This document shows, piece after piece, positions 7,849 through 52,422 of a stretch of 64,000 bases of DNA. The DNA is taken from NCBI GenBank assembly GCA_034002905.1, contig JAVEZQ010000006.1, positions 8,337-72,336 of the forward strand, in the 5' to 3' direction. The notes under the pieces are model-generated. The model had not been told where the DNA came from, searched no databases, and saw only the letters and a program-made list of their open reading frames with translations. The position numbers were made by a program, and so were the translations under genes. This stretch comes from Alphaproteobacteria bacterium (lineage in GTDB: Bacteria > Pseudomonadota > Alphaproteobacteria > UBA9219). How positions within the stretch are numbered: position 1 is the stretch's first letter; every line of letters starts with the position of its first letter.

Positions 7849-8814
7849 TTATTGTGGTGGAGGACATGAAAGAAACCAGTGACGAACTGGCGTAAGGGCC
7901 GGAACCTTGAGAAGGGCTTGAAGAGTACGCCAGACACGTGGGATGTGATCGAGTCGATTAAGCTTGACCAGTATGCCGAGAATTCGCGTGTGTCGTTGTG
8001 CGGCATAAACCTGTGTTGCGGCAAGCAAGGTGTCAAAGGACACCATATTGTTAAGCGTACAATAGCTTTGAACAACGTCTTCCATCTGTGAAAGTCCTCC
8101 ATCGCGTCGAACTTCTTCGCACCAGGAGGCGAGGTCATAAGCGATGCAGCCAAGACCTGCGTCTTGAAAGTCGATCAAGCCAACAGTTTCGCCCATAACC
8201 GGTTGAGGCAAAAGCATCATGTTATCGGGCATAAAGTCGCGCAGAAGCAAGGAACGGGGTAAGGAATCGAGTGGTGAAAGAACTTGATGCCACGCACTAG
8301 CGAATAAAGCTCGCTCCCGGACTGTGGCCGAACGCCGGAAAAGGCGAGGATAATAATAGTCCAGAAACAAGGCCGCTTGTTCGGAAAACAGTGCGGCGTT
8401 GAAAAAAGAAGTTTTGAACGCTCCCAGCATGGTCTCGCGAAAGTCTTTATGGATGCGGGCTAGAATGCTGACGGCCTGCGCATCAAAAAAGGACCGGTCA
8501 CGCCCCGCATCCAGAAGTTGGCCGACATTCTCCGTCCCGAAATCTTCCATCAAAACCAGACCGCGTATGATGTCGCTGGCATAGATGGTCGGCGCGGCTA
8601 TGCCCAGACGACGAAGGAGCGTCGAAAGATGCACAAAGGCGTCGGTGTGCGTGTCTGTACCTGCATCCATCAGGATGACCGAAGAGGGATGCCCCCCTTC
8701 GCGTGTGAGCCGCATAAAGGTACGTGAAGAAAAGTCGGCAGGGACATGATCCAGACAATAATCTTCCCAACCCGCATCCCGAATAAAGGAAAGTCGTTCC
8801 GCCTCAGTTGCCAT
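7849..8814 (-). CDS. Aminoglycoside/choline-kinase-family phosphotransferase (AmgK-like)
   Basis: 321 aa with a catalytic-loop-like LLLRDFMPDNMM and a DFG-like LIDFQDAG. It overlaps tsaE by 11 nt. The function is inferred from the fold family and the conserved neighbourhood. Confidence 0.7.
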   Translation of the reverse strand: MATEAERLSFIRDAGWEDYCLDHVPADFSSRTFMRLTREGGHPSSVILMDAGTDTHTDAFVHLSTLLRRLGIAAPTIYASDIIRGLVLMEDFGTENVGQLLDAGRDRSFFDAQAVSILARIHKDFRETMLGAFKTSFFNAALFSEQAALFLDYYYPRLFRRSATVRERALFASAWHQVLSPLDSLPRSLLLRDFMPDNMMLLPQPVMGETVGLIDFQDAGLGCIAYDLASWCEEVRRDGGLSQMEDVVQSYCTLNNMVSFDTLLAATQVYAAQRHTRILGILVKLNRLDHIPRVWRTLQALLKVPALTPVRHWFLSCPPPQ

Positions 8815-9265
8815 TTGTGAATTCCCTGGCTATTTTGTTCGACCAACGTGGAGATAGCGCTTCTATATCAACAAAACGCTCTTGCTTGCTACCGAAAACG
8901 AAAGTCAATTGTAACGCGTCACCGGGCATATAGCCGGAGGCTTTCTCGGGCCATTCGACGAGAACTGCCCCATCAGCAACAGCTTCATCAAAGCCAATTT
9001 CCTCGATTTCTTCGGGCGTCTTTAATCGATAAAGATCGAAATGGGAAAGACGTAATTTTGACAAATCATAAGATTGAACGAGGGTAAAGGTCGGGCTTGG
9101 AACGTCGCCTTTGTGACCCATTGCCCAAAGAAGATAGCGGGCAAAGGTTGACTTACCCGTGCCCAATTCGCCTTTAAGGAGCAAGACATCACCCACATCA
9201 AGTAACGGAGCAATCTTTTGCGCCAGTTTTTCGGTTTGGTTGAGAGAGGAAAGGGAAACTTTCAC
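8804..9265 (-). CDS. tsaE: tRNA t6A37 threonylcarbamoyl-transfer ATPase TsaE
   Basis: It carries the P-loop LLLKGELGTGKSTFARYLL and is a typical ~150 aa. The ORF-track start at 9526 runs into the kinase gene. A GTG at 9265 with an upstream AAAGGA lies 14 nt after the kinase stop and gives 153 aa. Confidence 0.85.
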   Translation of the reverse strand: MKVSLSSLNQTEKLAQKIAPLLDVGDVLLLKGELGTGKSTFARYLLWAMGHKGDVPSPTFTLVQSYDLSKLRLSHFDLYRLKTPEEIEEIGFDEAVADGAVLVEWPEKASGYMPGDALQLTFVFGSKQERFVDIEALSPRWSNKIAREFTNGN

Positions 9266-9278
9266 TTCTATCCATCCT

Positions 9279-11906
9279 TTATGCCCGCAACTGTGCAGGT
9301 TCGGCCTGCTGTGGTTCTGGTGTTTTAATGGGAAGAAAACAGCTAATACGTGTGCCGTCCTTTTCGTCGCTGAAGAGTTCAACTCGCCCGCCGTGAAGTT
9401 CAACAAAGCTTTTGACGAGACTGAGCCCCAGTCCTGCTCCGCCCTGTCGAAGGTGGGCGTTAGCCTTTTCAAACTTGCCAAAGATGCGATCTTTGTCTTC
9501 TTGCGGGATGCCGACGCCGGTATCAAGAACGCTCAGAATGATCCATGGTTCCTGCTTCCATGCGACGATGGCGATGTGACCGCCGGGAGGCGTGTATTTG
9601 ATGGCATTGCCGACAAGGTTAAACAAGACCTGCTTGATCCGGACTTCGTCAACTTCGAAGGTCCCAATATCCGAGGGGCAGTCGATCAGGATTTCAAGCG
9701 ACTGTTGTCGTCCCCATTCGGCCATCAGCTCTTTGGATTCGTTGAGAAGTTCGGCGACGCTAATCTCGCGCCGTTCGAGTGTTAGGCGGCCCGCCTCGAT
9801 CATGGCAAGATCAAGCACATTGTTGATGAGATGGGAAAGCTTCTCGCTTTCACCCCGAATGGTTGTTGTGTATTCAAGCTGACGTTCATTGAGCGTACCG
9901 AAATATTGTTCGCTCAGGATGTCGGCAAAGCCCATGATGGTGTTAAGTGGTGTGCGCAATTGATAGGAAACGTTGGCAACAAAATCGGATTTGAGGCGAT
10001 CTGCTGTGGCGAGGGCCGCGTTGCTTGCTCTCAGGGCTTGTTCGACGCGGATGGAGTCCGTCACGTCCAAAAAGCTATTGAGCACGGAACCGTCTGGCAG
10101 AGGAACAATCATATACTCGATGATGCTATGATCCGCACGCTCAATGCGTCCGGCGCGTTGTTTACGGTCGAGCGCATAGCTCACCATCTTTTCCTTGCGT
10201 TCGGGCCACTGGTCGTCTGGCACGTTGAGCAGGGGCCTAGCGGCTTCGATGAGGTCGTTGACATGCGTATCGGCGGACAAAAGCTCCGGTGGATAGGCCC
10301 ACACGCGCCCCAAGGCCGGATTGTAAAGACGCAGGCGTCCGTCGGGCCCAAAGACTGCAATCCCTTCGGAAAGGTTGTCGATCGTTTCGCGTTGAACGGC
10401 CATCAAGGTGTTATAGCTGGTTTCCAGCTCCAATTGGTCGGTGACGTTTTCATAAACAAACATCAAGCCGCCGAGCGGATGCGGCGCAATAAGGTTCCGT
10501 AAGCAGGTTGAATCCGGCAAGTGAAGCACATCTTCGCGTGGCTCAAGCAAGGATGTAAAAAGATTAAGGTATTCTTTCTTGTATTTCTGGAAATCGGTCT
10601 GCTCAGGGATTTTTCGCCTTGCCCGAAAATCTTCCAATACCTCGCCAAAGGTCGGCTTGCTGTCTAGAAAGCTTTCCTGAGCTTCCCATAAGCGCAAATA
10701 GGCACGGTTGTAAAACTCTAGCTTGGCATCGGGACCAAAGACCCCGATGGCCGCGCCGAGGTGTTCTAAAACCTCATGATGCGAAATCAAGTGGCGCCGC
10801 AGCTCTTTCTCTTTTTCTTCCTCGGCGGTTACATCGATGGCGAACCCGATCAAGACGATGGGATCGTCTACTGTTGTATTTGGCGTTATCTGGTTGAGAG
10901 GGGGCAGGGGGCGTTCGACAACTTGCAAAAGGCGACGATGGCCATTGATAACGGCGTGGTCGCGTCGTGTGATCGGGGCACCAGCAGTAAAGACTTCGTT
11001 GGCCAAAGCCTTTCCGCCCTTGGATGCGGGGCCCATCAGTTCATGTTGTTCGCTCAGGACCTTTTCGCGCGGGATATCCATAACGCGGGCATAGGCCTCA
11101 TTGCACATAGCCAGTGATAAATCCGCACGGCGTGCCCAAACGGGAAAAGGCAGAAGGTCAAAACAACGCTCGATTTGTTGTAGATCTGCTGTGGATGCCG
11201 TGGAGGGCTTGTCTTCTTTGGGTTCCGGAACCGTTTTTTGAAGCTGTTCTTCGTGTTGGCTCAACTTTTGCGCGGCGACGTGGACTTCTTTTGTAACGGG
11301 CTCTGCGGGAGCCCCTGTTTTGACGGCCATGTCTTCGGACAGAGGCATAAATTTCAGAGCCTCTTTAGAGTAGTCACAAAACCACAAAACATCTGCGTGC
11401 GGGCCTTCCCTGCCAATGCGAAAGCGGTTTCCGACCAGCCAAAATGCACGACCTTCTGCATGTGTGGCATGAACGGCCATCGCAAAAGGATCGCCCGAAA
11501 GTTGCAGTTTGCGGAAGGCGGCAAGCAGATCGCTGCCTTCTTTGACCGCTGCGATCAAATCATCCATGTGCGTTATCTTTTTGCTTCCCAATCGTGCCGA
11601 AACGCCTTGTTCTTCCCTAAGCAAGCCCTGCGGGGTAAAGAGGCAATATCCGCCGGGTAAACAACGCAACATATACTGCAAGCGATCGGCAACGAAGCGG
11701 ATATGGCGAAGATGCCTTTCGGATTGGGTTGTCTTGCGCCAATAGGACCACAGAGCAAAACTTTCTCCCACGGCAAAGACGGCAAGCGCGACAACGGTCA
11801 AGAGTGGCCATTCAAGCCCCAGTCCGGCACCGGCAACAATCGTAAAAACGATGGTTGCGCCAAGGATCGCGATGAGGGGGGCTTTGGTGAACAAATGCTT
11901 CAACAT
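9279..11906 (-). CDS. divL: PAS-domain sensor kinase of DivL type (Tyr replaces the phospho-accepting His)
   Basis: 875 aa with N-terminal TM helices and multiple PAS-like segments. The DHp H-box reads FVANVSYQLRTPLN, with a TAT (Tyr) codon at 9963-9965 where HisKA kinases have His. The CA domain is intact: N box NLVGNAIKYT, G1 DTGVGI, G2 GGAGLGLSL. Confidence 0.7.
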   Translation of the reverse strand: MLKHLFTKAPLIAILGATIVFTIVAGAGLGLEWPLLTVVALAVFAVGESFALWSYWRKTTQSERHLRHIRFVADRLQYMLRCLPGGYCLFTPQGLLREEQGVSARLGSKKITHMDDLIAAVKEGSDLLAAFRKLQLSGDPFAMAVHATHAEGRAFWLVGNRFRIGREGPHADVLWFCDYSKEALKFMPLSEDMAVKTGAPAEPVTKEVHVAAQKLSQHEEQLQKTVPEPKEDKPSTASTADLQQIERCFDLLPFPVWARRADLSLAMCNEAYARVMDIPREKVLSEQHELMGPASKGGKALANEVFTAGAPITRRDHAVINGHRRLLQVVERPLPPLNQITPNTTVDDPIVLIGFAIDVTAEEEKEKELRRHLISHHEVLEHLGAAIGVFGPDAKLEFYNRAYLRLWEAQESFLDSKPTFGEVLEDFRARRKIPEQTDFQKYKKEYLNLFTSLLEPREDVLHLPDSTCLRNLIAPHPLGGLMFVYENVTDQLELETSYNTLMAVQRETIDNLSEGIAVFGPDGRLRLYNPALGRVWAYPPELLSADTHVNDLIEAARPLLNVPDDQWPERKEKMVSYALDRKQRAGRIERADHSIIEYMIVPLPDGSVLNSFLDVTDSIRVEQALRASNAALATADRLKSDFVANVSYQLRTPLNTIMGFADILSEQYFGTLNERQLEYTTTIRGESEKLSHLINNVLDLAMIEAGRLTLERREISVAELLNESKELMAEWGRQQSLEILIDCPSDIGTFEVDEVRIKQVLFNLVGNAIKYTPPGGHIAIVAWKQEPWIILSVLDTGVGIPQEDKDRIFGKFEKANAHLRQGGAGLGLSLVKSFVELHGGRVELFSDEKDGTRISCFLPIKTPEPQQAEPAQLRA

Positions 11907-11954
11907 GGGCTATTCAAAAGGGTTAAGGGGGCAGAAGAACAAAACACGAGAGAA

Positions 11955-13394
11955 CTATACTGCACGCGAAACGGGGGTGTGTTCGTTTCGCTGTTTTTTA
12001 TCAAAGAGGGAAGCAACGACGCGCACGGCCATGCGGTGTGGAATCGCCAGTGTAATTTTATATCCATCAAGGTGGATCACGCCCATTGCTTCAAAAGGTT
12101 CGAGTGCCGCAATTTCGGCATTGAGGGTGACCAGAGAAAAGTTATGTTTACGGCAAACAGTTTCAAGATTGACGGACATTGTACACATCAGGGATTCAAT
12201 GATCGCGGCGCGCAATTTGTCTTCACCTGTCATGACAAGCCCGCGTTTTGTCGCAAAACCTTCGGTGCGTAGAGCTTGCACGTAATCTTCAATGCCATGG
12301 GCGTTTTGGAAAAAGTGTCCTTTGCTGGTGCCGATGCTGCTGGCGCCGATACCAAGAAGTGATCCGGCACAATCATCCGTGTATCCTTGGAAGGTTCGAC
12401 GCAATCGTTTGTCAGCCGCAGCCTTGGCCAGAGTATCATCGGGGTGGGCGAAGTGATCCATGCCGATCTCGACATAACCTGCATCCACAAGGGTTTTGCG
12501 CGCCAGTGACTCCATGGCCAATGCGGCATGTGGTCCCGGCATAATGTATTGTTCGAGCGCGCGCTGGTGTTTTTTGACTTGCGGCACGTGGGCATAGGAA
12601 AACAGAGCGATACGCGAAGGATGCAATCTTGCAGCTTGTCGCGCTGTTTGAGCAAGAGATGTAGGTGATTGGAATGGCAGGCCGTACATTAAATCAAAAT
12701 TGATTTTTTCGATCCCGTATGTCCGCAAAAGATCGCAAGCCTCTTTGACCATTTCATAGGGTTGAATGCGGCCGATCGCGCTTTGGACTTCGGGATTAAA
12801 GTCCTGAACGCCAAGGCTCACGCGCGTCACACCCATCATGGCAAGTGTGCGGGCTTGTGCTTTTGTGATCAGGCGGGCGTCAAGCTCGATGGCGACTTCT
12901 TGACAGGAGCTCATATCAAAACGTCGTGCGAGCGCGCCAAAGAGAAGGCCCATGTCTTTTTCTGTCATAATATTGGGCGAACCGCCGCCTAAATGAATGT
13001 GGGAAACGCGGCGCTGTCGTTTGGCGGACAGGGCAACCTGTTCTAGTTCTTTGTGAACATGTTCCAAATAGTTCGAAACGTCTTCATGCTTTTGTGTCGC
13101 GCAGGTATGACATCCGCAATAAAGGCAAATCGTTCGGCAATAAGGGATGTGAAGATAGAGAGAAACAGGTTCTTCGGGCGCAATTTGTGCCAGAACGTCC
13201 CGATACTGTTGAGCAGAAACCCCGTCCCGAAACGCTGTTGCGGGGGGATAGCTGGTATAGCGGGGCACAGCTTTTCCCAGCCACAGATCATCGCGTCCTG
13301 ATTTTTGTCCCAAAAGGCCAAAAAAAGGATCATCCAAGGTAAAACCATCGCCGGTTTCCGGCGTGATGTGAGGCAGGGCAGCCGTCTGGTTCAT
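11955..13394 (-). CDS. hemN: Oxygen-independent coproporphyrinogen III oxidase (radical SAM)
   Basis: 479 aa with the radical-SAM cluster motif YLHIPYCRTICLYCGC (CX3CX2C). The length and overall layout are HemN-like. Confidence 0.88.
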   Translation of the reverse strand: MNQTAALPHITPETGDGFTLDDPFFGLLGQKSGRDDLWLGKAVPRYTSYPPATAFRDGVSAQQYRDVLAQIAPEEPVSLYLHIPYCRTICLYCGCHTCATQKHEDVSNYLEHVHKELEQVALSAKRQRRVSHIHLGGGSPNIMTEKDMGLLFGALARRFDMSSCQEVAIELDARLITKAQARTLAMMGVTRVSLGVQDFNPEVQSAIGRIQPYEMVKEACDLLRTYGIEKINFDLMYGLPFQSPTSLAQTARQAARLHPSRIALFSYAHVPQVKKHQRALEQYIMPGPHAALAMESLARKTLVDAGYVEIGMDHFAHPDDTLAKAAADKRLRRTFQGYTDDCAGSLLGIGASSIGTSKGHFFQNAHGIEDYVQALRTEGFATKRGLVMTGEDKLRAAIIESLMCTMSVNLETVCRKHNFSLVTLNAEIAALEPFEAMGVIHLDGYKITLAIPHRMAVRVVASLFDKKQRNEHTPVSRAV

Positions 13395-13676
13395 TCACGC
13401 GGTCTTTCAGTGAATTCTGATAGCGAATCAATAGCCTATCATAGGGAAATCTAGGATAAAAGCGAGGGCCTTTGTGTTTTTTAGGCAGTTTTGACTGCGG
13501 AATGGACAGCGGGAGCCGGCTCCAGCGCGACCTAAATGTGCCACACCCTTAAAAAATAACCCTTTAACGTAATTTTTGGGCTTGAACCGAACTTGTAAAC
13601 TGCCTTTAATGAAAGTGGTTGAAGCCATTTTGACTTTTTTATGGTCCGGCCTGGACTCTTACCTGTGGAGTATATC

Positions 13677-14264
13677 ATGAAGATTTCCCTTAAAACCGTT
13701 CTCGTTGGTGCTGTTCTCGCCCTTGCAATGGGTTCGACAACGCATGCTTCTGTTCTTGATGTCGTGCGTGACAAAGAGGGCACCCCTGTCCTTGCGCAAA
13801 GCGGCGATTGTCTGCGCACGAACTGGGACAGTGATTCAGAAGCCTGCCACAAAAAGGCCGATGTTCAGCCGACCATCAAGATCAGCACGGATCGTGCGGC
13901 GGTTTACTTCGCTTTTGGTAGCTCGAAGCTGACCGCCCAGTCCAAGAAGGTCTTGGATGAGGTTGCCACGAAGATTCAGGCGAATCCTACCGTTACGGCT
14001 GTTCGTGTTGCGGGATATGCTGACCGCATCGGCAGTGCAGCGGCGAACGAGAAACTCTCTAAGCGTCGCGCTGATATGGTCCGCAAGTACCTTGCTTCCA
14101 AGGGCGTCGTTAACACACAAATCGTTGAGATCCGTTGGTTTGGCGACAGCGCTCCGGCAACAGATTGCAAGAAGGTTTCGAAGAAGAAGCTGATCAAGTG
14201 CCTGCAGCCGGATCGTCGCGTTGAAATCGAATACGACTCGGTTGTGGTTGAAAAGGTCCAATAA
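13677..14264 (+). CDS. OmpA-family peptidoglycan-binding protein, secreted
   Basis: The signal peptide is MKISLKTVLVGAVLALAMGSTTHA, with the ATG at 13677. The C-terminal OmpA-like domain shows ...AVRVAGYADRIGSAAANEKLSKRRADMVRKYL...PDRRVEIE. The ORF-track start at 13641 adds 12 residues ahead of the signal peptide. Confidence 0.85.
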   Translation: MKISLKTVLVGAVLALAMGSTTHASVLDVVRDKEGTPVLAQSGDCLRTNWDSDSEACHKKADVQPTIKISTDRAAVYFAFGSSKLTAQSKKVLDEVATKIQANPTVTAVRVAGYADRIGSAAANEKLSKRRADMVRKYLASKGVVNTQIVEIRWFGDSAPATDCKKVSKKKLIKCLQPDRRVEIEYDSVVVEKVQ

Positions 14265-14757: not shown

Positions 14758-16287
14758 CTACATTTTGAGGCGTCTATAGGACAAGGCTTCCGCAATGTGG
14801 GCGGATTCCAATTGTTCTTGCTCTGCCATATCGGCAAGAGTGCGTGCGACACGTAAGACGCGGTGATAGCCCCGGGCCGAGAGCTTGAGGTGTTCCGTCG
14901 CCTTGACAAGGAGTTGTCGCGCCGGTTCGTTGAGCGGTGTAACTTGTTCAAGAATTTCGCCTTCGGCTTCGGCGTTAGTCCGAATGGAGGCTTGAGCCTT
15001 CCTTGCAAGCGCGGCATAGCGCTCTCTCTGGATTTGACGTACCTTGGCCACGCGGGCGGCAACTTCGGCGGAGCCTTCTCTTGCTGGCGGCAAGGCAAGA
15101 TCAGTTGGGCTGACTTCCGGAACCTCGACATGACAATCGATACGATCAAAAAGAGGGCCGGAAATGCGGGATTGGTACTCAAGCGCGCATTTCGGCGCTC
15201 GACCACAGGCGCGGTCGGGATCCGATAAATAGCCACACCGGCAAGGGTTCATGGCCGCGATCAGCTGGATACGTGCGGGATAGGAGACATGATGATTGGC
15301 ACGCGAAATGACGGCCCGCCCTGTTTCAAGAGGTTGGCGCAAGGCTTCAAGGGTCGCGCGCTGGAATTCAGGGAGCTCGTCGAGGAAAAGGACACCATGA
15401 TGGGCCAGAGAAATCTCCCCCGGTTTGGCGCGAACGCCGCCACCGATTAGAGCCGGCAGGGTAGCGGAGTGGTGTGGGTCACGATAGGGCCGGTGGCGCA
15501 AAAGGCGGCCCCCCTCAAGAAGACCGGCAAGGGAATGGATCATAGAAACCTCAAGCGCCTCATCCGGTTCGAGCGGAGGGAGCAGAGAAGGCAGGCGCGA
15601 AGCTAGCATGCTTTTTCCTGATCCGGGGGGGCCGATCATCAGTAAATTATGGCCGCCAGCCGCGACAACTTCTAAAGCGCGCTTGGCCGTTTCTTGCCCT
15701 TTGATATCGCGCAAATCCAGAGTTGGGGCGTTGTCATTCAAGACTTGGAGGTGAGGCTCGGGGCGGTTGAGAACTTGAACCCCCTTGAAGTGGTTGATGA
15801 GCGAAAGAAGCGAGGGAGCGGCCAGAACCGGCAAATCTTCACTGGCCCAAACGGCTTCATTTCCGTTATCCTTTGGACAAATAAGACTTTTTTGTGCGGC
15901 ATTGGCTGCAATCGCTGCCGGAAGCGCCCCTGCGACTTTGGCCGTGGCGCCATCGAGTCCCAGCTCGCCCAGTGCGACATAGCTTGCCAGTTCTTCTTTA
16001 GGTAGAACCCCCATGGCACCCAATACAGCAAGGGCTATTGGCAAATCGAAATGACTTCCTTCTTTTACAACGTCGGCGGGCGCCAGATTAACAGTAATTC
16101 GTTTCGCAGGTAGGGCAAGGCCAAGGGCGTGCAAGGAACTGCGCACACGTTCGCGGCTTTCAGCCACGGCTTTATCCGGAAGGCCAACGATCATAAAGGC
16201 AACAAGACCCGATGATATTTGGACTTGAACATCAATGGGAAGAACAGAGGTTCCCTCAAAAGCCACAGTCCCGATGCGTGCAAGCAA
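14758..16287 (-). CDS. comM: Mg-chelatase-like AAA+ ATPase ComM/YifB
   Basis: 509 aa with an N-terminal Lon-protease-like domain, Walker A GPPGSGKSMLA and a ChlI-type AAA+ core. The YifB family layout is typical. Confidence 0.88.
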   Translation of the reverse strand: MLARIGTVAFEGTSVLPIDVQVQISSGLVAFMIVGLPDKAVAESRERVRSSLHALGLALPAKRITVNLAPADVVKEGSHFDLPIALAVLGAMGVLPKEELASYVALGELGLDGATAKVAGALPAAIAANAAQKSLICPKDNGNEAVWASEDLPVLAAPSLLSLINHFKGVQVLNRPEPHLQVLNDNAPTLDLRDIKGQETAKRALEVVAAGGHNLLMIGPPGSGKSMLASRLPSLLPPLEPDEALEVSMIHSLAGLLEGGRLLRHRPYRDPHHSATLPALIGGGVRAKPGEISLAHHGVLFLDELPEFQRATLEALRQPLETGRAVISRANHHVSYPARIQLIAAMNPCRCGYLSDPDRACGRAPKCALEYQSRISGPLFDRIDCHVEVPEVSPTDLALPPAREGSAEVAARVAKVRQIQRERYAALARKAQASIRTNAEAEGEILEQVTPLNEPARQLLVKATEHLKLSARGYHRVLRVARTLADMAEQEQLESAHIAEALSYRRLKM

Positions 16288-16522
16288 CAGAGATATCCTT
16301 CACTTATAGAAAAAATATGCCTAAGGCGCCCCTCTGAAATAGGTTTTTTTCACCTATCCCGTCAAGCCCTTCGTTGGGAAAACAACAGTCTCGGCATGAA
16401 AGGATTAGTGGCCTGTTTTATTAGTCAAATGTTCATAATATAACGATTAAAACAAAGCGGAGTCTCGACCTGAATGGGTGGGAGGGCTCAGGATCGCTGT
16501 GGGCTCAGGAGAGTTGGAAACG

Positions 16523-19504
16523 ATGCTCAATATTCTGGATAATTTTCTTGCTTCTATCCTCGTTGCCGCCAAGCAGCCTATCGAGTCGTTTATCCAGCTG
16601 GAAACGGCTGATGACAATACAACCTTGGTGGCTGCTGATGGGTCGATGGTTTCGATTCTTCAGGTCCATGGAACGAGGCTGATTATCGGTGATGCCGAGT
16701 ATCAGTGGATTATCGATCAGGCAACAACAAAACTTGGGGCGCGTTTTGATCGTCCCGGTTATGCGTTGCAGGTTTACTTCATGCGCGATTCCAAAATGGT
16801 TGGGCATGACCTTTCGATGGCAATGAAAAACAATCGCGTATCAGCCAAGGCGTTGGAACTTGATCTGGATGATTTGCTTGATGAAAGGTTAAACCATTTA
16901 TCCAAGCATCTTGCGCATGAAGAGATATTTTTTGTCCTTTGGACGCGTCCCTCCGCAGTCAACAAAACTGAACTGGACGAAGCGGTGCGTATGCGCCGTT
17001 CTCAGAAGTGGGTGGTCGCTAATGATGCGCAGCATCCGTTGGCTGCGCTTGAGCCGCTTCGTATACGCCATAAAAGTTACGTGACCTCCATTATGGCGGC
17101 GCTTGACGATGTGGCCGTTCGGGCGACGGTTTGCGATGTACATAGTGCACTCGCATCTGTTCATGCCAGTCTTTATCCAACAACGGGTCATGAAAACTGG
17201 CGCGCCAATCTTCCGGGCGATCCGCTCCTACCGCGTGCAGGAGAAAACGAGGCGGATTTGTCTGACGTTTTGTGGCCGCCGATCGGGCGCCAGCTTTGTA
17301 CGGGTGATGCCGAAGTTATCACGCCATCTATTGTTCGGATTGGCGATCTGTATTGGGCTTCGGTTGACATGACCCTTGGCCCTGCGGATCCGTCACCCTT
17401 TACAAATCTTCTGAATCGTCTGATCGATAGCGATGTTCCGTTTCAGATTTCGCTGTTGATCGAAAGCGGCGGTGCCTATGGAACGGGTTTCCGAACCTTT
17501 GCTGCAGCCGTGTTGGCGTTTACGAACGAAGTCAATCGCCAGATCCGTGAATCGCTCAAGGCTTTGGCCGAGCTGGCTCAGAGCGAACCTGTTGTTCGTC
17601 TTCGTGTTTCCATCTCTACTTATGCGCCAGTACGGGAGATCAAGCTGATCGAAGCACGTATGGCGGCGCTCATTCAAGCGCTGGAATCGTGGGGCTACTG
17701 TCAGGCTTCGGCGGCTGGGGGAGATCCGTTACAAACGCGTTTGTCTTCGGCCTTGGGCATCGCTTGCGCCTCGACAGCACCGGCTGCGATTGCGCCGCTC
17801 TATGATGTGATTAAACTTTTGCCGTGGCAACGTGCCTCTTCGCCCTTTTCAGAAGGTCCTATCGTGTTCCGCACGCCGGATGGACGTATTTTTCCGTATC
17901 AGACAGGAAGTTCGCTGACAACAACTTGGTTTGACCTGATCTTCGCCCAGCCCGGTTCAGGTAAATCGGTTTTAATGAACGCCATGAATCTCGGCACTAT
18001 TTTGGCGGCGGGGAATACGCGCTTGCCTTTCATTGCTATTTTGGACATTGGGCCTTCGTCGTCGGGGTTGATTTCGCTTATACGTGACGCGCTTCCGCTC
18101 GAAAGACGCCATGAGGCGATGCATTTTAAACTCAAAATGTCGCCCGAATACGCGGTCAATCCTTTTGATACGCAGCTCGGATGTCGTTATCCCTTGCCCG
18201 AAGAACGGTCTTATTTGATTGAATTGCTTACTTTGCTGTGCACGCCTCCCGGGCAAGCTGCGCCTTATGACGGGATGACACAGTTGGTTGGCTTGTGCGT
18301 CGACGAGATGTATCGCTGGCGCGATGACAGTGGCGCTAACTCGGAGCCGCGCCCCTATCTTGTCAATGTTGAGGCCGATGTTGATGCGGCGCTGAGTAAA
18401 CACAACATTCATTTGCCCGTCGATCCCTATTGGTGGGATGTTGTTGACGCGCTTTATGACGTCGGAGCTTATCACGAATGTACCTTGGCGCAACGCCATG
18501 CTGTGCCGACGCTTGTTGATGCTGTGACGGCCGCCCGTCGTCCGCAAATTCGGGCTTTGCTTGAAGAAACCTCGATCGGTGGATCGGCGGAGTCGGTTAT
18601 TCATGCGTTTGATCGTATGATTGCCTCCGCTGTTCGTGAATTCCCGATTTTGGCGTCGATAACGCGCTTTGATATCGGGACAACCCGAGTTGCGGCCGTT
18701 GACTTGCAAGATGTTGCCCCGCAAGGTGATGACACCGCAGATCGACAGACCTCGGTCATGTATATGTTGGCACGGCATGTTCTGATCCGTTCGTGGTGGT
18801 TGGGTCAGGAGTCGTTGCGGCTTATCCCGGAAAAATTCCGCTCGTATCACGAGTCGCGTTTGCGTGACATCCGTGAATGTCCCAAACGTCTGTGCTTTGA
18901 CGAATTCCATCGCACGAGCAAAACAAAAGCTGTGCGGGCTCAGGTCATTCGTGACGTGCGCGAAGGCCGCAAATGGGGTGTGCAGATTGTTTTGGCTTCC
19001 CAGCTTCTTGATGATTTCAGCGACGACATGGTTGATATGGCAACAGGCGTGTGGATTTGCGGTACGGCGGTGTCCGAGCGGGCAATTGAGGCAACGGCCG
19101 AACGTTTCGGCCTATCCGATACGGCACGATTGGTTATGCGCTACAAGCTGACGGGTCCACGTGCCAACGGTGCGCCGGTTCTTATGCTGCTTAGCACGAA
19201 CGAAGGACGTTACGAACATCACCTAATCAACACATTGGGCCCGATTGAGCTGTGGGCTTTGTCTACGTCGCGTGAAGACGTTGATCTTCGCACGCGTCTT
19301 TACGATGCCTTGGGGGCGCCAATGGCACGTCAGGTTTTGGCGCGCATCTTCCCGAACGGTTCGGCTCGACAGGAAATTCGCCGTCGTATAGTCCAGCGCA
19401 TGGATGTCGGCGATGTTGAGCGGGCCGGGACGAGTATTGTTATTAGCGAAATGGCGGAAGAGCTGATCAAAACGGCCCGCGAAGCACGTCTTGTCGAGGA
19501 TTAG
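16523..19504 (+). CDS. icmB: T4BSS ATPase IcmB/DotO (TraU family, VirB4-like)
   Basis: About 1000 aa, matching the ~1009 aa of Legionella IcmB. The N-terminus ...FIQLETADDNTTLVAADGSMVSILQVHG is typical of IcmB/TraU, and the Walker A is FAQPGSGKSVLMNAMN. It is followed by icmP and icmO homologs. An ATG at 16523 with GGAGA 11 nt upstream is preferred over the GTG at 16478. Confidence 0.85.
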   Translation: MLNILDNFLASILVAAKQPIESFIQLETADDNTTLVAADGSMVSILQVHGTRLIIGDAEYQWIIDQATTKLGARFDRPGYALQVYFMRDSKMVGHDLSMAMKNNRVSAKALELDLDDLLDERLNHLSKHLAHEEIFFVLWTRPSAVNKTELDEAVRMRRSQKWVVANDAQHPLAALEPLRIRHKSYVTSIMAALDDVAVRATVCDVHSALASVHASLYPTTGHENWRANLPGDPLLPRAGENEADLSDVLWPPIGRQLCTGDAEVITPSIVRIGDLYWASVDMTLGPADPSPFTNLLNRLIDSDVPFQISLLIESGGAYGTGFRTFAAAVLAFTNEVNRQIRESLKALAELAQSEPVVRLRVSISTYAPVREIKLIEARMAALIQALESWGYCQASAAGGDPLQTRLSSALGIACASTAPAAIAPLYDVIKLLPWQRASSPFSEGPIVFRTPDGRIFPYQTGSSLTTTWFDLIFAQPGSGKSVLMNAMNLGTILAAGNTRLPFIAILDIGPSSSGLISLIRDALPLERRHEAMHFKLKMSPEYAVNPFDTQLGCRYPLPEERSYLIELLTLLCTPPGQAAPYDGMTQLVGLCVDEMYRWRDDSGANSEPRPYLVNVEADVDAALSKHNIHLPVDPYWWDVVDALYDVGAYHECTLAQRHAVPTLVDAVTAARRPQIRALLEETSIGGSAESVIHAFDRMIASAVREFPILASITRFDIGTTRVAAVDLQDVAPQGDDTADRQTSVMYMLARHVLIRSWWLGQESLRLIPEKFRSYHESRLRDIRECPKRLCFDEFHRTSKTKAVRAQVIRDVREGRKWGVQIVLASQLLDDFSDDMVDMATGVWICGTAVSERAIEATAERFGLSDTARLVMRYKLTGPRANGAPVLMLLSTNEGRYEHHLINTLGPIELWALSTSREDVDLRTRLYDALGAPMARQVLARIFPNGSARQEIRRRIVQRMDVGDVERAGTSIVISEMAEELIKTAREARLVED

Positions 19505-19692
19505 TATGGTTAATAGGGGCCAAAAGGGGTTGTAGCAAGTAATTGCTTCAGGCAAGTTACCCTCTTTGTCACAGATATGAGCGCTACCGCCCTTTTTTGA
19601 GGTGTGATAGTGTTTCGTTATGAGTATGAATAGGCATAAAGTGTTCTTGCATGCCGGGGGCGCGAGATTGAACGTGATTGGGGCTTAAGAAA

Positions 19693-20922
19693 ATGGCTGG
19701 GAGCAACGAAGATCCAACAACAACTTTTCTTTTGGTTTTGGGGGTATTTGGCCTATTGGGTTATGCCGTTTGGTATTTCTTTCGCATAGAGATATTGACC
19801 GCTATCCAATATATCAGGCTTGTTGAGTTGGCTCCTCTGGCATTGTTCAGTGATCACGTCCAATATTGCGTCTCGTGGCTTAAAAATGCCTCTGTGACGA
19901 GTGAAGTTCCCTCGGATGACGTTATTATGGCCACGCGCGGTTGTTTTGGGGCTAGTCGTGTTGCAAGCATGCCCGTCATTGACGCCATGAATTATTATAC
20001 GGTGACGCCCAAGAGTTTGGGAGAAATTGGGCGCTTGCTTGGCTCGTTTGTGCGCTGGCCCTTGGTGATTGCTTGCTGTGGCGTGGCGTATTTCGCTTTG
20101 TACAAGTCCAAGCGCAATGGGTTTCGCGTCAAATATGATCTGGAGGGCTTTATCAAGATTCAGGGATTGGTTTGGCCTATCATTGCGCCTATCGTCAAAT
20201 TTAACCCGGCCAAGGCAAGCTCTCGTGTTCCGGGACAGCTTGTTCCGGCTAAATTGCCGACCTTTGCGGAGGCTCTGTCTCCTGAAGAATGGCTTGCCAT
20301 GCACGTCATTCCCGTCAATAAAAACGTGCCCCAAAAAGAAGCCGTTCATGCGGCTTTCCTCAAGCAGCTTGGGCCGCGCTGGACTGGGATCGACGATTTG
20401 CCGCCTTATATGCGGGCTCTTTTTGCCGCGTTTGCGCTTAAAGGCGCGCAGAAGCGGGATGAAAGCGATGAGTTTTTGGGGCGAATTGCAACTTGTTGGA
20501 GTCCAAAGGGAGGGTTTCGTATGACGCCGCCCATTGCCGCCGAGGTCAAGAAAATTTTGAAGGACCCAGAAATCGGAGGAAAGGCTTTAGAGGTAGCTTC
20601 GAAACATGCTTACCGTACGACGGCGATGTTGGGCGTTTTGAAATGGGCGCGCTTTATGGGGGGTGTTTTGGCTTCGGCAAGCTTCCTGTGGCTGCGTGGG
20701 GTGGATCGTGATTTGTGGTATGCCGCTAACAATTTGGGACGCCGCTCTTTTCATACAGAAGGGGCCGGTGCGCTGGCGCATTTTATGGCCGAGGATTTGG
20801 CCGGCAAGCCTCTGATGGTGCCCCGTCTTGAAACGGCCATTATATCTATCAACAAATATATGGGTGAAAACGCGGTTCAAATACCCCCGTCCGAGAACGT
20901 ACAGCAGAAAGAAGCCGTCTGA
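19693..20922 (+). CDS. icmP: T4BSS coupling-complex membrane protein IcmP/DotM (TrbA family)
   Basis: 409 aa from the ATG at 19693, with N-terminal TM helices (FLLVLGVFGLLGYAVWYFF). The blocks LVWPIIAPIVKFNP and FLWLRGVDRDLWYAANNLGRR...GALAHFMAE match what I recall of DotM. It is in synteny with icmO. Confidence 0.75.
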   Translation: MAGSNEDPTTTFLLVLGVFGLLGYAVWYFFRIEILTAIQYIRLVELAPLALFSDHVQYCVSWLKNASVTSEVPSDDVIMATRGCFGASRVASMPVIDAMNYYTVTPKSLGEIGRLLGSFVRWPLVIACCGVAYFALYKSKRNGFRVKYDLEGFIKIQGLVWPIIAPIVKFNPAKASSRVPGQLVPAKLPTFAEALSPEEWLAMHVIPVNKNVPQKEAVHAAFLKQLGPRWTGIDDLPPYMRALFAAFALKGAQKRDESDEFLGRIATCWSPKGGFRMTPPIAAEVKKILKDPEIGGKALEVASKHAYRTTAMLGVLKWARFMGGVLASASFLWLRGVDRDLWYAANNLGRRSFHTEGAGALAHFMAEDLAGKPLMVPRLETAIISINKYMGENAVQIPPSENVQQKEAV

Positions 20923-20947
20923 AACCAATAATACTTAGGGTGTCGAA

Positions 20948-21496
20948 ATGAAGTTTGTTTTGAAGAATGAGTCCGCAGCAAAGGCCTCTGTTGTGTGGCG
21001 TAACAAAACGCCGTGCCTTCTCGTTCATTTTTACGCCAGCACCCCCCCGATGGTTTGGCAAATGGATTTAGAGAAAGCGTCTAATACAGCGATCTTGCTT
21101 CAGGAAAAAGATGGTCTCTGGTGTTTTGGCTATGGGGAGCCGGGAAAGGATTTTACGGTTGTTGCCAAGTTCAGCAACCGGATTGATGCAGAGGACGCCT
21201 ATCAAAGGATTCAAAAAGTCATCGACAAGGGGGAGGGAATGTCCTTCCGCCGTGTAGCCAATATGATCTTTTATCTTGTGTTGATCTTTTTTATTTTGTC
21301 CCTCTTTTTTGGGCCAAAGGCCCGCGATGCGATGGAGCTCGCGCCGGAAAACGCAGCGGCTCCGGCAACGCCGGCCGTGCAGGGCTTTCAGTTTGGTGGA
21401 GGGGAGCCGCAAAGCGCCCCGGCGGCAGAGGAAGATCAAAGCAAGAAATTTGGTGTTCCGCTGGATGCGGACTCCGTTTTGCCATCAGCGCCTTAA
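20948..21496 (+). CDS. Hypothetical single-pass membrane protein inserted between icmP and icmO
   Basis: 182 aa, comprising a ~100-aa soluble N-domain, one TM helix (MIFYLVLIFFILSLFFG) and an Ala/Pro/Glu-rich tail. It is on the same strand with short gaps to both neighbours (25 nt and 39 nt). I recognised no family. Confidence 0.55.
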   Translation: MKFVLKNESAAKASVVWRNKTPCLLVHFYASTPPMVWQMDLEKASNTAILLQEKDGLWCFGYGEPGKDFTVVAKFSNRIDAEDAYQRIQKVIDKGEGMSFRRVANMIFYLVLIFFILSLFFGPKARDAMELAPENAAAPATPAVQGFQFGGGEPQSAPAAEEDQSKKFGVPLDADSVLPSAP

Positions 21497-21535
21497 GAGA
21501 GGCGACGCGGGCAGCGGAGTTAAGGAGAAGAAGAC

Positions 21536-23968
21536 ATGGTCCTTTTAAAGAAACATACCGTCAATTATCGCGATTTTATTCGCGATGTCAGGCCGGCTTC
21601 GGTGCGGTTCCGTGATTACTGGAACCAGACTCAGCCATTGGCCATGATCGCGCTTGTCATGGCCGGTGCGATGGTTTTTATGCCTCAGTTTTTGGGGCTG
21701 GCGGACTTCTTTGCCTTCTTTTTGTTTATCTATGCGCGCTGGGTTTTAAGGGCAAATATCGAATTACCACTCAAGATGCCGAAATATGCCGCTCCGCTGC
21801 CGGATTTGCATAATCCGACACCGGGCAAAAAGGGAGCGGGAAAGTCCGAAGGCATCTTGTATCTGGGCAATCTTGATGATCCTGAAGATCCTTATCATCA
21901 GGGCGAGTTGTGGTTGACCAACACCGATGCGCGTACGCATATGCTGTTTATCGGCACGACTGGTTCCGGTAAGACCGAAGGGCTCAAATCGATTGTTGCC
22001 AATGCGCTGACATGGGGATCAGGCTTTGTCTACATTGACGGCAAGGCCGATACTGATTTGTGGGCATCGCTTTTTGCCCTCGCGCGGCGCTTTGGCCGTG
22101 ATGACGATTTGCTTATCTTAAATTATATGACCGCGAACTCCGATGATGGCGCGGTCTCCAATACGATGAACCCGTTCTCGAACGGGTCAGCCTCTTATTT
22201 GACCAACATGGTTGTCAGCCTTATGCCGGATGCAGGTGGCGATAACGCGATGTGGAAAGAGCGAGCTGTGGCGCTGATGGGGGCCTTGATGCCTGCTTTG
22301 ACATGGAAGCGTGATCGTGGCGAATTGCTTTTTGACGTTAGCACGTTGCGTGATTACATCGAGTTGCCGGCCATTATTCGTTTGTCACGTGATCCTAATT
22401 TGCCCGAGCGCATTATTCGTGCCTTGCAGGGGTATTTGACGACTTTGCCGGGGTATATGGATGCTGCCTTTGATGATGAAGGTAACGAGCGTCCGCCTTC
22501 GCCGGATCAACCGATGTATGATCTTCAGGTCGCGCGACAACAGCACGGTTATCTGTCGATGCAGTTTACGCGTTCTCTGCAATCTTTGGCGGATGATTAT
22601 GGCTATATCTTCCGTGCGCAGCTTGCGGATGTCGATGTCTTGGATACGGTGCTTAACCGCCGCATTCTTATCGGGTTGATTCCGTCTTTGGAAAAATCGG
22701 GCGACGAGGCGGCGAACCTTGGTAAAATCGTTGTGGCCTGTTTAAAGGGCATGATGGGCGCTACGCTGGGGAATACGGTTGAAGGCGGCTGGGAGGCTGC
22801 AATCGGCAGCAAGCAAACGCGTTCTTCTTCCTCCTTTATGACTGTTTTCGACGAGGTCGGTTACTATACGGCGCAGGGTATGGCTGTTATGGCGGCGCAG
22901 GCTCGTTCGCTTGGCTTCTCGCTGATCTTTGCGGCACAGGATTTGCCGTCCATGGAAAAGCGCGTCAAGCAAGAAGCGCAATCCATTTTGGCCAACTGTA
23001 ACCTCAAGATATTTGGCAAGCTCGAAGATCCCGGTGACACGAAGAAGTTCTTTGAAGAACATGCCGGTGATAACTTCGTTATGGATTCGGGAGGGATGAG
23101 CGCAAAGGTTGATACGCTCTCCGGCCTGTTTATGAGCAAGCCCTTCTATGACAACATGGGAACAACGGGTCTCGTCCCTCGTAAACGCGCTGTTTATGAC
23201 CATTTGCGTGGCCAGCGTGAAGGTGAAGTCCACATGTTCTTTGCCGATTATTTGTGTAAGGCCCGTATGTTCTATGCGCGCGCCGAGCCGGTCAAGGCTT
23301 TGCGTGTGCATAAGCTTTTGCCGGTCCAGAACACCACGGACCCGCTAAAGAACAGGGAACGTATCATTAACGAAGTCGCCGCTCGGCTGAATTCGGATGA
23401 ATGGAAGGCGGCGGATGTTGCTCCTTCTCCCAAGACACCGCCGGAGATTTTCCGTCTGGCAGATGTGCTTGGCGAGGCGTCGGAGCAGGGCAAGCTTTCG
23501 CCTGAAGCAGCGGCGCGTGCTGTTGGGGGCTTGCATGAAGTGGTCACGGAATCGCGTAGCCTGTTTGGTGGGCAAGGGGATGGCGTTGCGCCATCTGCGG
23601 AAGCGCCGTCGCCACAAGCTGCATCATCACCAGTAACTGATAAAACGACGCCAGCAACCAAAACGGTCAATGTTGGCCTTTCTTGGGGCGGGAATGCGCC
23701 GCCGACCGCGACAAAACAGGCGAACATTATTCAGGAAACGCCGGTCAGCGAACAAGCTGATGAAAAAATGATGCCCGCAACAGTTGGACAACATGGCTAT
23801 ATGCCTCAGGACATCGACATGGGCGTTGTGCCTCAAATGGAGACCGAGACAGAAAGCGAAGACGTCACGAAGTTAAAGTTGCCAGAGGATCTGTCGGGAT
23901 ATATCGAAAGCATGGCGGAAAAGTTTAATGCTGGGTTGGGTGATACCGATACGCAGCGAAAAGAATAA
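21536..23968 (+). CDS. icmO: T4BSS type IV coupling protein IcmO/DotL (TrbC/VirD4-like ATPase)
   Basis: 810 aa with two N-terminal TM helices, the segment LPLKMPKYA and Walker A FIGTTGSGKTEGLK. The last ~200 aa form a low-complexity tail. The size and order match DotL (~783 aa). Confidence 0.85.
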   Translation: MVLLKKHTVNYRDFIRDVRPASVRFRDYWNQTQPLAMIALVMAGAMVFMPQFLGLADFFAFFLFIYARWVLRANIELPLKMPKYAAPLPDLHNPTPGKKGAGKSEGILYLGNLDDPEDPYHQGELWLTNTDARTHMLFIGTTGSGKTEGLKSIVANALTWGSGFVYIDGKADTDLWASLFALARRFGRDDDLLILNYMTANSDDGAVSNTMNPFSNGSASYLTNMVVSLMPDAGGDNAMWKERAVALMGALMPALTWKRDRGELLFDVSTLRDYIELPAIIRLSRDPNLPERIIRALQGYLTTLPGYMDAAFDDEGNERPPSPDQPMYDLQVARQQHGYLSMQFTRSLQSLADDYGYIFRAQLADVDVLDTVLNRRILIGLIPSLEKSGDEAANLGKIVVACLKGMMGATLGNTVEGGWEAAIGSKQTRSSSSFMTVFDEVGYYTAQGMAVMAAQARSLGFSLIFAAQDLPSMEKRVKQEAQSILANCNLKIFGKLEDPGDTKKFFEEHAGDNFVMDSGGMSAKVDTLSGLFMSKPFYDNMGTTGLVPRKRAVYDHLRGQREGEVHMFFADYLCKARMFYARAEPVKALRVHKLLPVQNTTDPLKNRERIINEVAARLNSDEWKAADVAPSPKTPPEIFRLADVLGEASEQGKLSPEAAARAVGGLHEVVTESRSLFGGQGDGVAPSAEAPSPQAASSPVTDKTTPATKTVNVGLSWGGNAPPTATKQANIIQETPVSEQADEKMMPATVGQHGYMPQDIDMGVVPQMETETESEDVTKLKLPEDLSGYIESMAEKFNAGLGDTDTQRKE

Positions 23969-23990: not shown

Positions 23991-24017
23991 AAAAAGGGGG
24001 GCTTTGCTCCCCTTTTT
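23991..24017 (+). terminator. Rho-independent terminator after icmO
   Basis: The sequence aaaaaggggggc-ttt-gctcccctttttt gives a 7-bp stem with one G-U pair, followed by a T-run. Confidence 0.6.
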
Positions 24018-24115: not shown

Positions 24116-25165
24116 ATGCGCATTCTTCAGATCATGGCTGGACGAGGACAGGGCGGGGCGGAAACCTATTCCGTTGATGTGATGTTGAGTCTGCATGCCG
24201 CTGGTGTGGATCAATGCGTTGTCGTGGCGCCTGATGCCCCCCGCACAGTCGAGCTGATCGCTGCGGGATTGCGTGTGAACACGGACGTTCTGCGTTCACG
24301 CTTTCGCTTTATTCGACGTTGGCGTCTGGCGCAGCTGATTGCAACGGAGAAACCTGACCTTATTCATTGCTGGATGCGTCGGGCGGCTTCGCTTATCCCA
24401 TCTTGGAAAGATGGGCCCGTCATTGGCTGGTTTGGTGGCTATTACGATCCTGCAAACTTTAAGCGATGCACCCAGTTCGTTGGCGTGACGCAGGGGATTG
24501 TCGATCATATGCGGCAGAAAGGCGTCCCCGCCGAACATTCGCACTATGTCCCGACTTTTCCGGATGTGCGGGACGAAGCTCCTGTTGATCGCACCACACT
24601 GGACACGCCGCATGGCGCACCTGTTGTTCTCGCCCTTTCCCGTCTTCATCCCAAAAAGGGGCTCGACACGCTTTTGAAAGCAGCCGCACAAATTGAAGGG
24701 CTCTATGTTTGGCTTGCGGGTGAGGGGCCTCTTCGGCAAGAGCTTGAAAAACTCACGCGTAAGCTTGGCCTTACAGAACGCGTGCGGTTTTTGGGGTGGC
24801 GAACAGATCGGGGGGCGCTTTTGCGTTCCGCTGATATATGCGCTTTGCCGTCTCGTTATGAACCCTTCGGAACCGTTATTCTGGAGGCGTGGGCAGCTGG
24901 CACCCCCTTTGTTGCGGCTATGAGCGCGGGACCTGCGGCGCATGTCCTTGATGGAGAAAATGGGCTGCTTGTCCCTATTGATGATGTGGATGCTCTCACT
25001 TCGGCCCTTCGTCGCGTGATAGAGGATGAGCCTTTGCGCCGCCGCATCATTGTCAACGGGTTTGATACATATTCCCGTACATACACACGTAAAGCGGTTA
25101 CCGAGCGCATCATTGCGTTATACCAAAGGATGATTGCTTCCTTTTCCGGTCGTTCTGCGGTTTGA
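24116..25165 (+). CDS. Glycosyltransferase family 4 (GT-B fold, RfaG-like)
   Basis: 349 aa. The N-terminus is MRILQIMAGRGQGGAE, and the C-terminal EX7E region is EPFGTVILEAWAAGTPFVAA. Confidence 0.8.
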   Translation: MRILQIMAGRGQGGAETYSVDVMLSLHAAGVDQCVVVAPDAPRTVELIAAGLRVNTDVLRSRFRFIRRWRLAQLIATEKPDLIHCWMRRAASLIPSWKDGPVIGWFGGYYDPANFKRCTQFVGVTQGIVDHMRQKGVPAEHSHYVPTFPDVRDEAPVDRTTLDTPHGAPVVLALSRLHPKKGLDTLLKAAAQIEGLYVWLAGEGPLRQELEKLTRKLGLTERVRFLGWRTDRGALLRSADICALPSRYEPFGTVILEAWAAGTPFVAAMSAGPAAHVLDGENGLLVPIDDVDALTSALRRVIEDEPLRRRIIVNGFDTYSRTYTRKAVTERIIALYQRMIASFSGRSAV

Positions 25166-52307: not shown

Positions 52308-52422
52308 CACAAATTTGAGAGTTCATGCTGTATCCATGAAAATACTTTCATGCGTTGTCTTTTCTTGTTCCTCAGCGGGATAGGGGATAAAACGTGAAAG
52401 AATAACGTAAGGCAGGATTAGC

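Follow-up and report, generated by a model that had tools for sequence, protein, structure and literature searches.

Two halves of a type IVB secretion locus lie about 29 kb apart in a Micavibrio-related alphaproteobacterium, probably through lineage-specific rearrangement

We analyzed a 64,000-nucleotide stretch (here called the window) of contig JAVEZQ010000006.1, from the Alphaproteobacteria bacterium assembly GCA_034002905.1, which carries two clusters of type IVB secretion system (T4BSS) genes. The first cluster, icmB-icmP-orf182-icmO, occupies positions 16523 to 23968, and the icmL gene of the second starts at 53019, 29,050 bp beyond the icmO stop. We conclude, with a probability of about 0.8, that these are one old locus whose halves were parted by ~29 kb through lineage-specific rearrangement, with the parts acting in trans. 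The two clusters would be two transcription-unit blocks of a single T4BSS locus, anciently resident in the chromosome of a Micavibrio-related host. A preliminary description of the window had named the icmB/icmP/orf182/icmO module, placed it ~29 kb from the core cluster and between comM and a glycosyltransferase gene, and read the arrangement as long residence and rearrangement, not recent acquisition. Annotation confirms the gene identities, the spacing and both neighbors, and comparative gene order, divergence matching that of core genes and shared outer junctions support the historical claim.

Window genes were annotated with Pfam, NCBIfam and PDB; the GC content of the window is ~52%. The secretion genes and their immediate surroundings, in window coordinates, are as follows.

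14758 to 16287, minus strand: comM, Mg-chelatase-like (Pfam PF01078/PF13541/PF13335)
16523 to 19504, plus strand: icmB/dotO, VirB4/TraU-family ATPase of 993 amino acids (aa) (IcmB-named relatives, TraU match, Walker motifs)
19693 to 20922, plus strand: icmP/dotM, membrane subunit of the coupling complex (PF23127, DotM_C, 162 bits vs a 27-bit cut-off; NF033890, 180 bits, under the 230-bit cut-off)
20948 to 21496, plus strand: orf182, clade-specific protein with one transmembrane helix (alignment of 36 orthologues)
21536 to 23968, plus strand: icmO/dotL, type IV coupling protein of 810 aa (match to 6sz9_A)
23991 to 24017, plus strand: GC-rich hairpin with T-run, likely to terminate the icmB-icmO unit (repeat/hairpin scan)
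24116 to 25165: GT4 glycosyltransferase (Pfam annotation)
24116 to 52307, no strand assigned: intervening core genes, GT4 through gltX (Pfam/NCBIfam annotation)
52423 to 52929, plus strand: gcrA-like gene, 168 aa; GcrA-type DNA-binding region at the N terminus, CxxC..CxxC at the C terminus (weak GcrA matches, far under cut-offs)
53019 to 53651, plus strand: icmL/dotI (PF11393, 145 bits; NF038072, 154 bits, under the 175-bit cut-off)
53656 to 54435, plus strand: second full-length dotI paralogue in the dotJ/icmM position (PF11393, 114 bits)
54566 to 55783, plus strand: icmK/dotH (PF12293, 247 bits)
55773 to 57248, plus strand: icmE/dotG, TrbI/VirB10-like (PF03743; NF033900)
57460 to 58917, plus strand: orf485, DotF/IcmG/TraP-like (position and architecture)
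59065 to 60069, plus strand: TraQ/DotE-like polytopic membrane protein, 334 aa (NF033883 TraQ, 38.7 bits; DUF6750, 32.8 bits)
60309 to 61080, plus strand: tandem paralogues orf126 (60309-60689) and orf122 (60712-61080) in the icmD/traR position (300-nt repeat, 89% identity)
61096 to 61794, plus strand: icmJ/dotN, cysteine-rich coupling-complex subunit, last gene of cluster 2 (NF038221, 74 bits, under the 100-bit cut-off)
61885 to 63093, minus strand: Na+/H+ exchanger, convergent, new right neighbor of icmJ (PF00999)

Gene order was compared by projecting the window proteins with tblastn onto ~270 related loci. An icmK probe for such loci gave only 7, and an IcmL alignment was used in its place. 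A contiguous locus of 13 genes occurs in at least 10 genomes (e.g., L102, L111, L114, L123, L125, L127-L130, and L149; L numbers are our labels), in the order gcrA-like, dotI, dotI2, dotH, dotG, orf486, orf356, orf126, dotN, dotO, dotM, orf182, dotL, GT4. In several contiguous genomes (L196, L197, and L199) gltX, sometimes with lexA, lies just upstream of gcrA-icmL. The contiguous order is colinear with traM-N-O-P-Q-R-S-T-U ... trbA-B-C of IncI1, and the outer junctions gltX-gcrA|icmL and icmO|GT4 are common to split and unsplit genomes and are both kept in the window. Legionella, against which the order had initially been judged, is the wrong yardstick, as the host is an alphaproteobacterium and its ancestral order matches IncI1 tra/trb and not Legionella. 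In Legionella, icmP-icmO are upstream of icmN-M-L, whereas in the window they are downstream of icmB.

The adjacency of icmJ and icmB is seen in most relatives, and we take it to be ancestral because it is also present in Micavibrio proper, in Pseudoalteromonas (L087), and as traT-traU in IncI1. On a neighbor-joining tree of IcmO rooted with IncI1 TrbC, the window forms one group with L001-L006, L009, and L013, and the contiguous lineages are sister to this group and branch more deeply. In the members of the group whose sequence reaches far enough upstream (L001-L005 and L013 at least), no icmJ precedes icmB. The synteny comparison with relatives that had been called for thus finds the locus contiguous in sister lineages and split in the window's own group. 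A single derived break between dotN and dotO in the window's clade is supported by this pattern. The icmB-icmP-orf182-icmO block itself is not derived, being the 3' part of the contiguous 13-gene locus, and it is only the icmJ|icmB break that is new.

The distance between the halves varies among related split genomes. The B-O ... L-J layout of the window recurs in DYDA01000004.1, where genes of the same families fill a gap of 15.4 kb; the halves in WREW01000001.1 are on opposite strands and separated by ~137 kb, and those in the complete chromosome OZ251993.1 by ~0.66 Mb. The left neighbor of icmB also differs, being comM, addA, or pal. In the window this new neighbor is the divergently oriented comM, and the comM|icmB junction recurs in L001, L004, L088, and L089. 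For each difference in left neighbor, an inversion with one end in the 5' spacer of icmB is a sufficient explanation.

The position of the break can be refined with the first of two conserved DNA elements, one upstream of each cluster.

16421 to 16438, plus strand: icmB upstream element, 18 nt, consensus TTANNNAANTNTTCATAA, 85-102 nt upstream of the icmB ATG (a 19-nt exact copy, 16421 to 16439, was searched)
52303 to 52352, plus strand: ~50-nt element upstream of the gcrA-like gene (alignment of the window and 8 relatives, L081-L085, L111, L114, and L123)

The icmB element occurs 100-183 nt upstream of icmB in 9 genomes, split and contiguous (icmJ-icmB) alike, with 0 other occurrences in 3.18 Mb of loci. 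Because it is present in both layouts, icmB probably had its own upstream control region before the break, and the break would have fallen at a transcription-unit boundary upstream of the element. We regard the element as a candidate promoter or operator, carried along by icmB in the move. The idea that it is a shared regulon site within the window was rejected, as it occurs there only once. The element upstream of the gcrA-like gene is likewise unique in the window, and its sequence differs from that of the icmB element. A GANTC site (GAGTC) lies ~20 nt downstream of the icmB element.

These observations suggest the following course of events. The ancestral order of the clade and its sisters would have been lexA/gltX, gcrA-like, dotI, dotI2, dotH, dotG, dotF-like, dotE-like, small membrane protein, dotN | dotO, dotM, orf182, dotL, GT4. 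In the ancestor of the window's subclade, the dotN-dotO spacer would have been broken upstream of the conserved icmB-specific element, and the halves re-ordered so that dotO-dotL-GT4-pta-ackA now stands ahead of ...comEC-gltX-gcrA-dotI...dotN. Later local inversions would have altered the genes between and beside the halves.

Long vertical residence is also indicated by occurrence among relatives of the host and by divergence. Based on AddA and AddB of alphaproteobacterial type (1091 and 897 bits, above cut-offs) and on the nearest relatives of IcmO, IcmB, and IcmL, the host is placed near Micavibrio and is not a Legionella relative. Those nearest relatives are metagenome-assembled genomes (MAGs) labelled Micavibrio, Rhodospirillaceae, Alphaproteobacteria, or "Bdellovibrionales" (where NCBI places Micavibrio). 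The same genes are found in >200-300 species-level genomes of Micavibrio-related alphaproteobacteria, with IcmB 56-83% identical across the order. Their divergence follows that of adjacent core genes (IcmB 83% vs ComM 86%; IcmB 78% vs Pta 81%; IcmL 74-80% vs GltX 76-79% identity). Together with the gene orders, this supports an old chromosomal locus with long vertical residence and repeated rearrangement.

By homology, the window encodes the components that place a system in the type IVB class (the MPF_I / Dot-Icm-Tra/Trb superfamily): DotO, DotL with DotM, and DotI/DotH/DotG. The envelope components DotI, DotH, and DotG are present, as PF11393 (twice), PF12293, and PF03743 all exceed gathering thresholds. 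For IcmB there is no match among the Pfam and NCBIfam models; the protein carries Walker A and B motifs, aligns with IncI1 TraU at 28% identity over 99% of its length (E 1e-82), and its relatives at 70-83% identity carry the name IcmB at NCBI and JGI. Gene callers place its start at GTG 16499 (1001 aa). We favor ATG 16523, since an AGGAG Shine-Dalgarno sequence precedes it and relatives are 990-998 aa long. IcmO matches Legionella DotL (6sz9_A) with E 8e-127 over residues 6-603 and has N-terminal transmembrane segments, a Walker A motif (140-147), and an acidic disordered C-terminal tail. Within the block, successive genes are separated by 188, 25, and 39 bp, and icmB through icmO are probably co-transcribed.

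In the proposed mechanism, the split parts would still act together in trans. DotO would be the VirB4-type motor that energizes the machine, and DotL and DotM, with DotN supplied from the other cluster, would form a substrate-coupling complex that feeds the DotH/DotG/DotF envelope complex; these roles are predicted from the sequences. DotA/TraY, DotB/TraJ, DotC/TraI, DotD/TraH, and IcmT/TraK were found neither in the window nor in the 10 kb on each side of it, and the remaining parts (DotA/B/C/D and others) would be encoded elsewhere. No IcmS/IcmW/LvgA, IcmQ/R, icmN, or effectors were recognized in the window.

We infer that the system translocates proteins (effectors) rather than DNA. The best-surviving alternative, which we nevertheless consider unlikely, is an IncI-type conjugation system that transfers DNA. 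The colinearity with IncI1 tra/trb would fit such a system, as would the TraQ-like and TraO-like matches and the 338 bits scored by IcmO on NF041447, "F-type conjugative transfer protein TrbC," the label that PGAP assigns to the IncI1 trbC product. However, there is no relaxase, nikA, or mobile-element gene in the window or in 10 kb on each side, the genes lie within the core genome and are vertically inherited, and DotG and DotL score higher on Dot/Icm than on IncI references (for DotG, NF033900 157 bits, cut-off 750, against 97 bits for the TraO model, both under cut-offs). IncI conjugation hallmarks are also missing beside icmO, which is followed by a terminator and GT4-pta-ackA, whereas in IncI1 nikB is next to trbC. 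In MacSyFinder-based work, the Micavibrionales systems were classed, in passing, as relaxase-less pT4SSi (PMC9418006).

A second alternative is that a translocator of this kind is now a decaying relic, its fragmentation marking loss of function. Decay might produce progressive scattering of the kind that the order shows, in the extreme as solitary icmB and icmO genes. We regard this as very unlikely, as the open reading frames (ORFs) are all full length, the nucleotide-binding motifs of DotO and DotL are intact, IcmB identity is maintained across the order, the upstream elements are conserved, and genomes with scattered clusters still hold every gene looked for.

It is more improbable still that two separate recent horizontal insertions each brought part of a T4BSS. 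In favor of this, the GC content at third codon positions (GC3) of the secretion genes is slightly under that of the rest (0.540 vs 0.567, nominally significant at p = 0.03), and the correlation of their codon usage is at the low edge of the null range. The GC3 values are inside the core-gene range, as is codon usage, so the comparison of both clusters with core genes that had been proposed finds a compositional deviation that is at most faint. The earlier remark that neither cluster has island borders was borne out at both: the window has no tRNA gene and no Rfam match, there is no integrase, transposase, or relaxase among its ~50 annotated genes or within 10 kb on each side, and a repeat search of the window found no repeats bracketing either cluster. 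Moreover, the two halves adjoin one another in sister lineages, between the same outer flanks; they are complementary and not redundant, and their identities track those of flanking core genes. The 27-28 core genes that separate them comprise GT4, pta, ackA, pal, tolB/A/R/Q, ybgC-SBP3, ruvB/A/C, nfeD, orf131, SPFH, tsaD, gpsA, lexA, opgC, flgE/K/L, a methyltransferase-regulator gene, a metallophosphoesterase gene, comEC, and gltX. This list includes every gene named before (pta-ackA, tol-pal, ruvCAB ... comEC, gltX), with ybgC/SBP3, opgC, and the methyltransferase-regulator and metallophosphoesterase genes as additions.

That the 29 kb of core genes were misjoined between the parts of a contiguous island by a chimeric assembly, a concern raised at the outset because such an error would undo the split, can practically be dismissed: the source is a MAG contig, and short-read contigs all stop at the orf126/orf122 duplication, but contigs from at least five separate sequencing runs overlap to tile the window from ~9 to 63 kb with all four cluster borders (comM|icmB, icmO|GT4, gltX-gcrA|icmL, and icmJ|Na+/H+ exchanger, the last in three independent contigs), the window is colinear with MAG contig SAAE01000009.1 (107.8 kb, GCA_009929575.1), a second long contig of 98.6 kb encodes the same proteins, and the related MAG contig DYDA01000004.1 has the same layout.

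Several points weigh against our preferred account of one old locus, split by rearrangement and acting in trans. The polarity of the break comes from a protein neighbor-joining tree and outgroup gene order, not from a species tree. The mechanism could be block interchange, serial inversions, or duplication followed by loss. No Logan contig bridges orf126/orf122: six end inside the duplication, and the MAG contig alone spans it. The small GC3 deficit of the secretion genes is nominally significant. Finally, no window protein reaches an NCBIfam equivalog cut-off for Dot/Icm or IncI1; for Dot/Icm, the DotM, DotN, DotI, and DotG scores are 180/230, 74/100, 154/175, and 157/750 bits relative to their cut-offs. 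The system is a distinct T4BSS lineage, so functions are assigned through homology alone.

The inferred system overlaps only in part with those known from other organisms. It shares with IncI1 (R64-type, MPF_I) homologues of TraM/DotI, TraN/DotH, TraO/DotG, TraQ, TraT/DotN, TraU/DotO, TrbA/DotM, and TrbC/DotL, and the contiguous locus of the sister lineages has the traM...traU...trbA-trbB-trbC order. In contrast to IncI1, the locus is chromosomal, lies among core genes without a relaxase or oriT nearby, lacks traV-Y and excA between dotO and dotM, and in the window is broken between the traT and traU equivalents; identities are just ~24-31%, and orf182 has no detectable similarity to TrbB. With Dot/Icm of Legionella and Coxiella (pT4SSi) it shares the strong DotL match, DotM_C, DotI, DotH, DotG, and a DotN-like protein, surroundings in which no relaxase was found in the window or its flanks, and, in the window's relatives, the icmJ-icmB adjacency. 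It differs from Dot/Icm in its alphaproteobacterial host, its second full-length DotI paralogue, and its failure to reach any equivalog cut-off, and icmN, icmS, icmW, icmQ, and icmR were not seen in the window.

The rvh system of Rickettsiales, which are host-dependent alphaproteobacteria, is a P-type (IVA, VirB/D) type IV secretion system (T4SS) encoded in scattered islets among core genes, with duplicated components. The scattering among core genes and the duplicated components are alike in the two cases, whereas the T4SS class differs and there is no homology beyond the ATPases. The kib system of Pseudomonas putida IsoF is a T4BSS outside Legionellales that kills bacteria (PMC9519443), and the system described here could likewise act on bacterial targets. 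Unlike the present locus, which is old, borderless, and split, kib is a single, recently acquired 70-kb island with an integrase (PMC9519443).

The locus is broken at different places in other lineages. Micavibrio proper keeps dotI..dotN-dotO together and has dotM-orf-dotL elsewhere, so that its break falls between dotO and dotM. In the complete genome of M. aeruginosavorus HCB189 (L054, NZ_CP195303.1), dotM, orf192, and dotL are at 7980-12571, by argS and gyrB. As two scaffolds are of similar length (889,751 and 889,960 bp), we considered whether such dotM-x-dotL loci have a paralogous full cluster elsewhere in their own genome, and nothing supported the idea. In another clade (JAMFSS010000009.1, L034 and L104), a solitary icmO (lpxI|icmO|SIMPL-secF) and a solitary icmB (phaR|icmB|lysS) are 62 kb apart on opposite strands.

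We consider the split to be real yet a fairly ordinary case of genome reshuffling, in which an operon cluster was broken at an operon boundary. The kind of system is already known, as its genes are named Icm in GenBank and pT4SSi has been noted for Micavibrionales (PMC9418006). The case is nonetheless informative in several respects. One order spans a graded series from a 13-gene contiguous locus to solitary genes, a natural experiment on the un-clustering of a multi-protein machine. It is plausible that single-locus T4SS callers could miss or split such a system, given the 27-28 intervening genes and a 2011 genome paper on Micavibrio aeruginosavorus (ARL-13) that reported "no evidence for type III or IV secretion" (PMC3189940). 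Manual inspection can miss it too: dotM-orf-dotL is present in HCB189 despite that report.

The role of a T4BSS in a likely bacterial predator is a more interesting question than the split itself, as a conserved T4BSS in relatives of an obligate predator makes the mode of Micavibrio prey attack testable. A role in predation is plausible. We suggest, tentatively and as a less likely possibility, that throughout the Micavibrio-like order the T4BSS would be a core organelle, inherited vertically and used on contact with bacterial prey as a weapon or for feeding. The genes would be integrated into the host genome deeply enough to tolerate single-gene scattering, with the gcrA-like regulator, the icmB element, and orf182 holding the parts together in trans.

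The gcrA-like gene lies directly upstream of icmL in ~50 genomes, including ones in which just gcrA-icmL-icmL2 stay together. This linkage, retained even in dispersed clusters, argues that the gene is probably part of the system and not a housekeeping gene. Cluster 2 thus probably starts at 52423 and not at icmL, and the gcrA-like protein may be a dedicated T4BSS regulator. In Micavibrio proper we detected no homologue of it upstream of icmL.

The orf182 product has a beta-rich domain at its N terminus and a single transmembrane helix, with a disordered linker leading to a C-terminal GVPxxADxxL motif that is near-invariant in the 36 orthologues. It evolves fast, and its position between dotM and dotL is constant across the order. 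There was no family or sequence match in Pfam, NCBIfam, or PDB, and a k-mer search returned only 3 close homologues. An AlphaFold2 model has a pLDDT of 66 overall and 70-86 over approximately residues 11-120 (the N-terminal domain and transmembrane helix); compared with PDB folds by Foldseek, it gave nothing better than E 0.085. No relationship to TrbB was detected; the 36-sequence profile matched IncI1 TrbB by hhalign with a probability of 0.3%. The GVPxxADxxL motif resembles a docking peptide and probably lies in the periplasm.

Within cluster 2, orf485 has an acidic N terminus and a single transmembrane helix, followed by a long stretch of low complexity and a small beta domain at the C terminus, with no family match in Pfam or NCBIfam; it is called DotF/IcmG/TraP-like by position only. 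The orf126 and orf122 genes encode small membrane proteins with a weak match to DUF4134 (VirB2-like pilin). Their duplication is the sole sizeable repeat in the window, and most relatives have a single copy. A minus-strand ORF over them (60273-60812) is probably spurious. The OmpA-like gene at 13641-14264 was rejected as DotK/IcmN: with 27.8 bits it does no better than Pal, and much higher scores come from generic OmpA models.

A few further observations concern related genes elsewhere. JAYRGC01 (L012/L017) and CAIPYM01 (L018/L036) each carry two solitary icmO copies per MAG, with 67-71% identity to that of the window. The matches cover residues 1 to ~640 only, so the C-terminal tails differ, and the copies may represent coupling-protein paralogues that differ in substrate range. 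The best IcmB match in the plasmid collection (44%) is on the Methylorubrum extorquens AM1 megaplasmid (L096, NC_012811.1, 466828-469791), a 1.26-Mb replicon typed MPF_I but non-mobilizable, with an icmO homologue (42%) ~18 kb off on the other strand. Near cluster 2, ~5-10 kb beyond the right end of the window (L097 144-5200, on SAAE01000009.1), four consecutive genes of 536, 489, 213, and 420 aa adjoin an Ivy-family gene; they have no Pfam or NCBIfam match and could be substrates or unrecognized components. Among the intervening genes, SBP_bac_3 and YbgC-type thioesterase (4HBT) domains share one 423-aa ORF at 32464-33735, upstream of tolQ. The ORF is 418 aa long in one Logan assembly and is represented by two genes (290 and 141 aa) in MAG contig SAAE01000009.1, and it may be a frameshift variant or a fusion.

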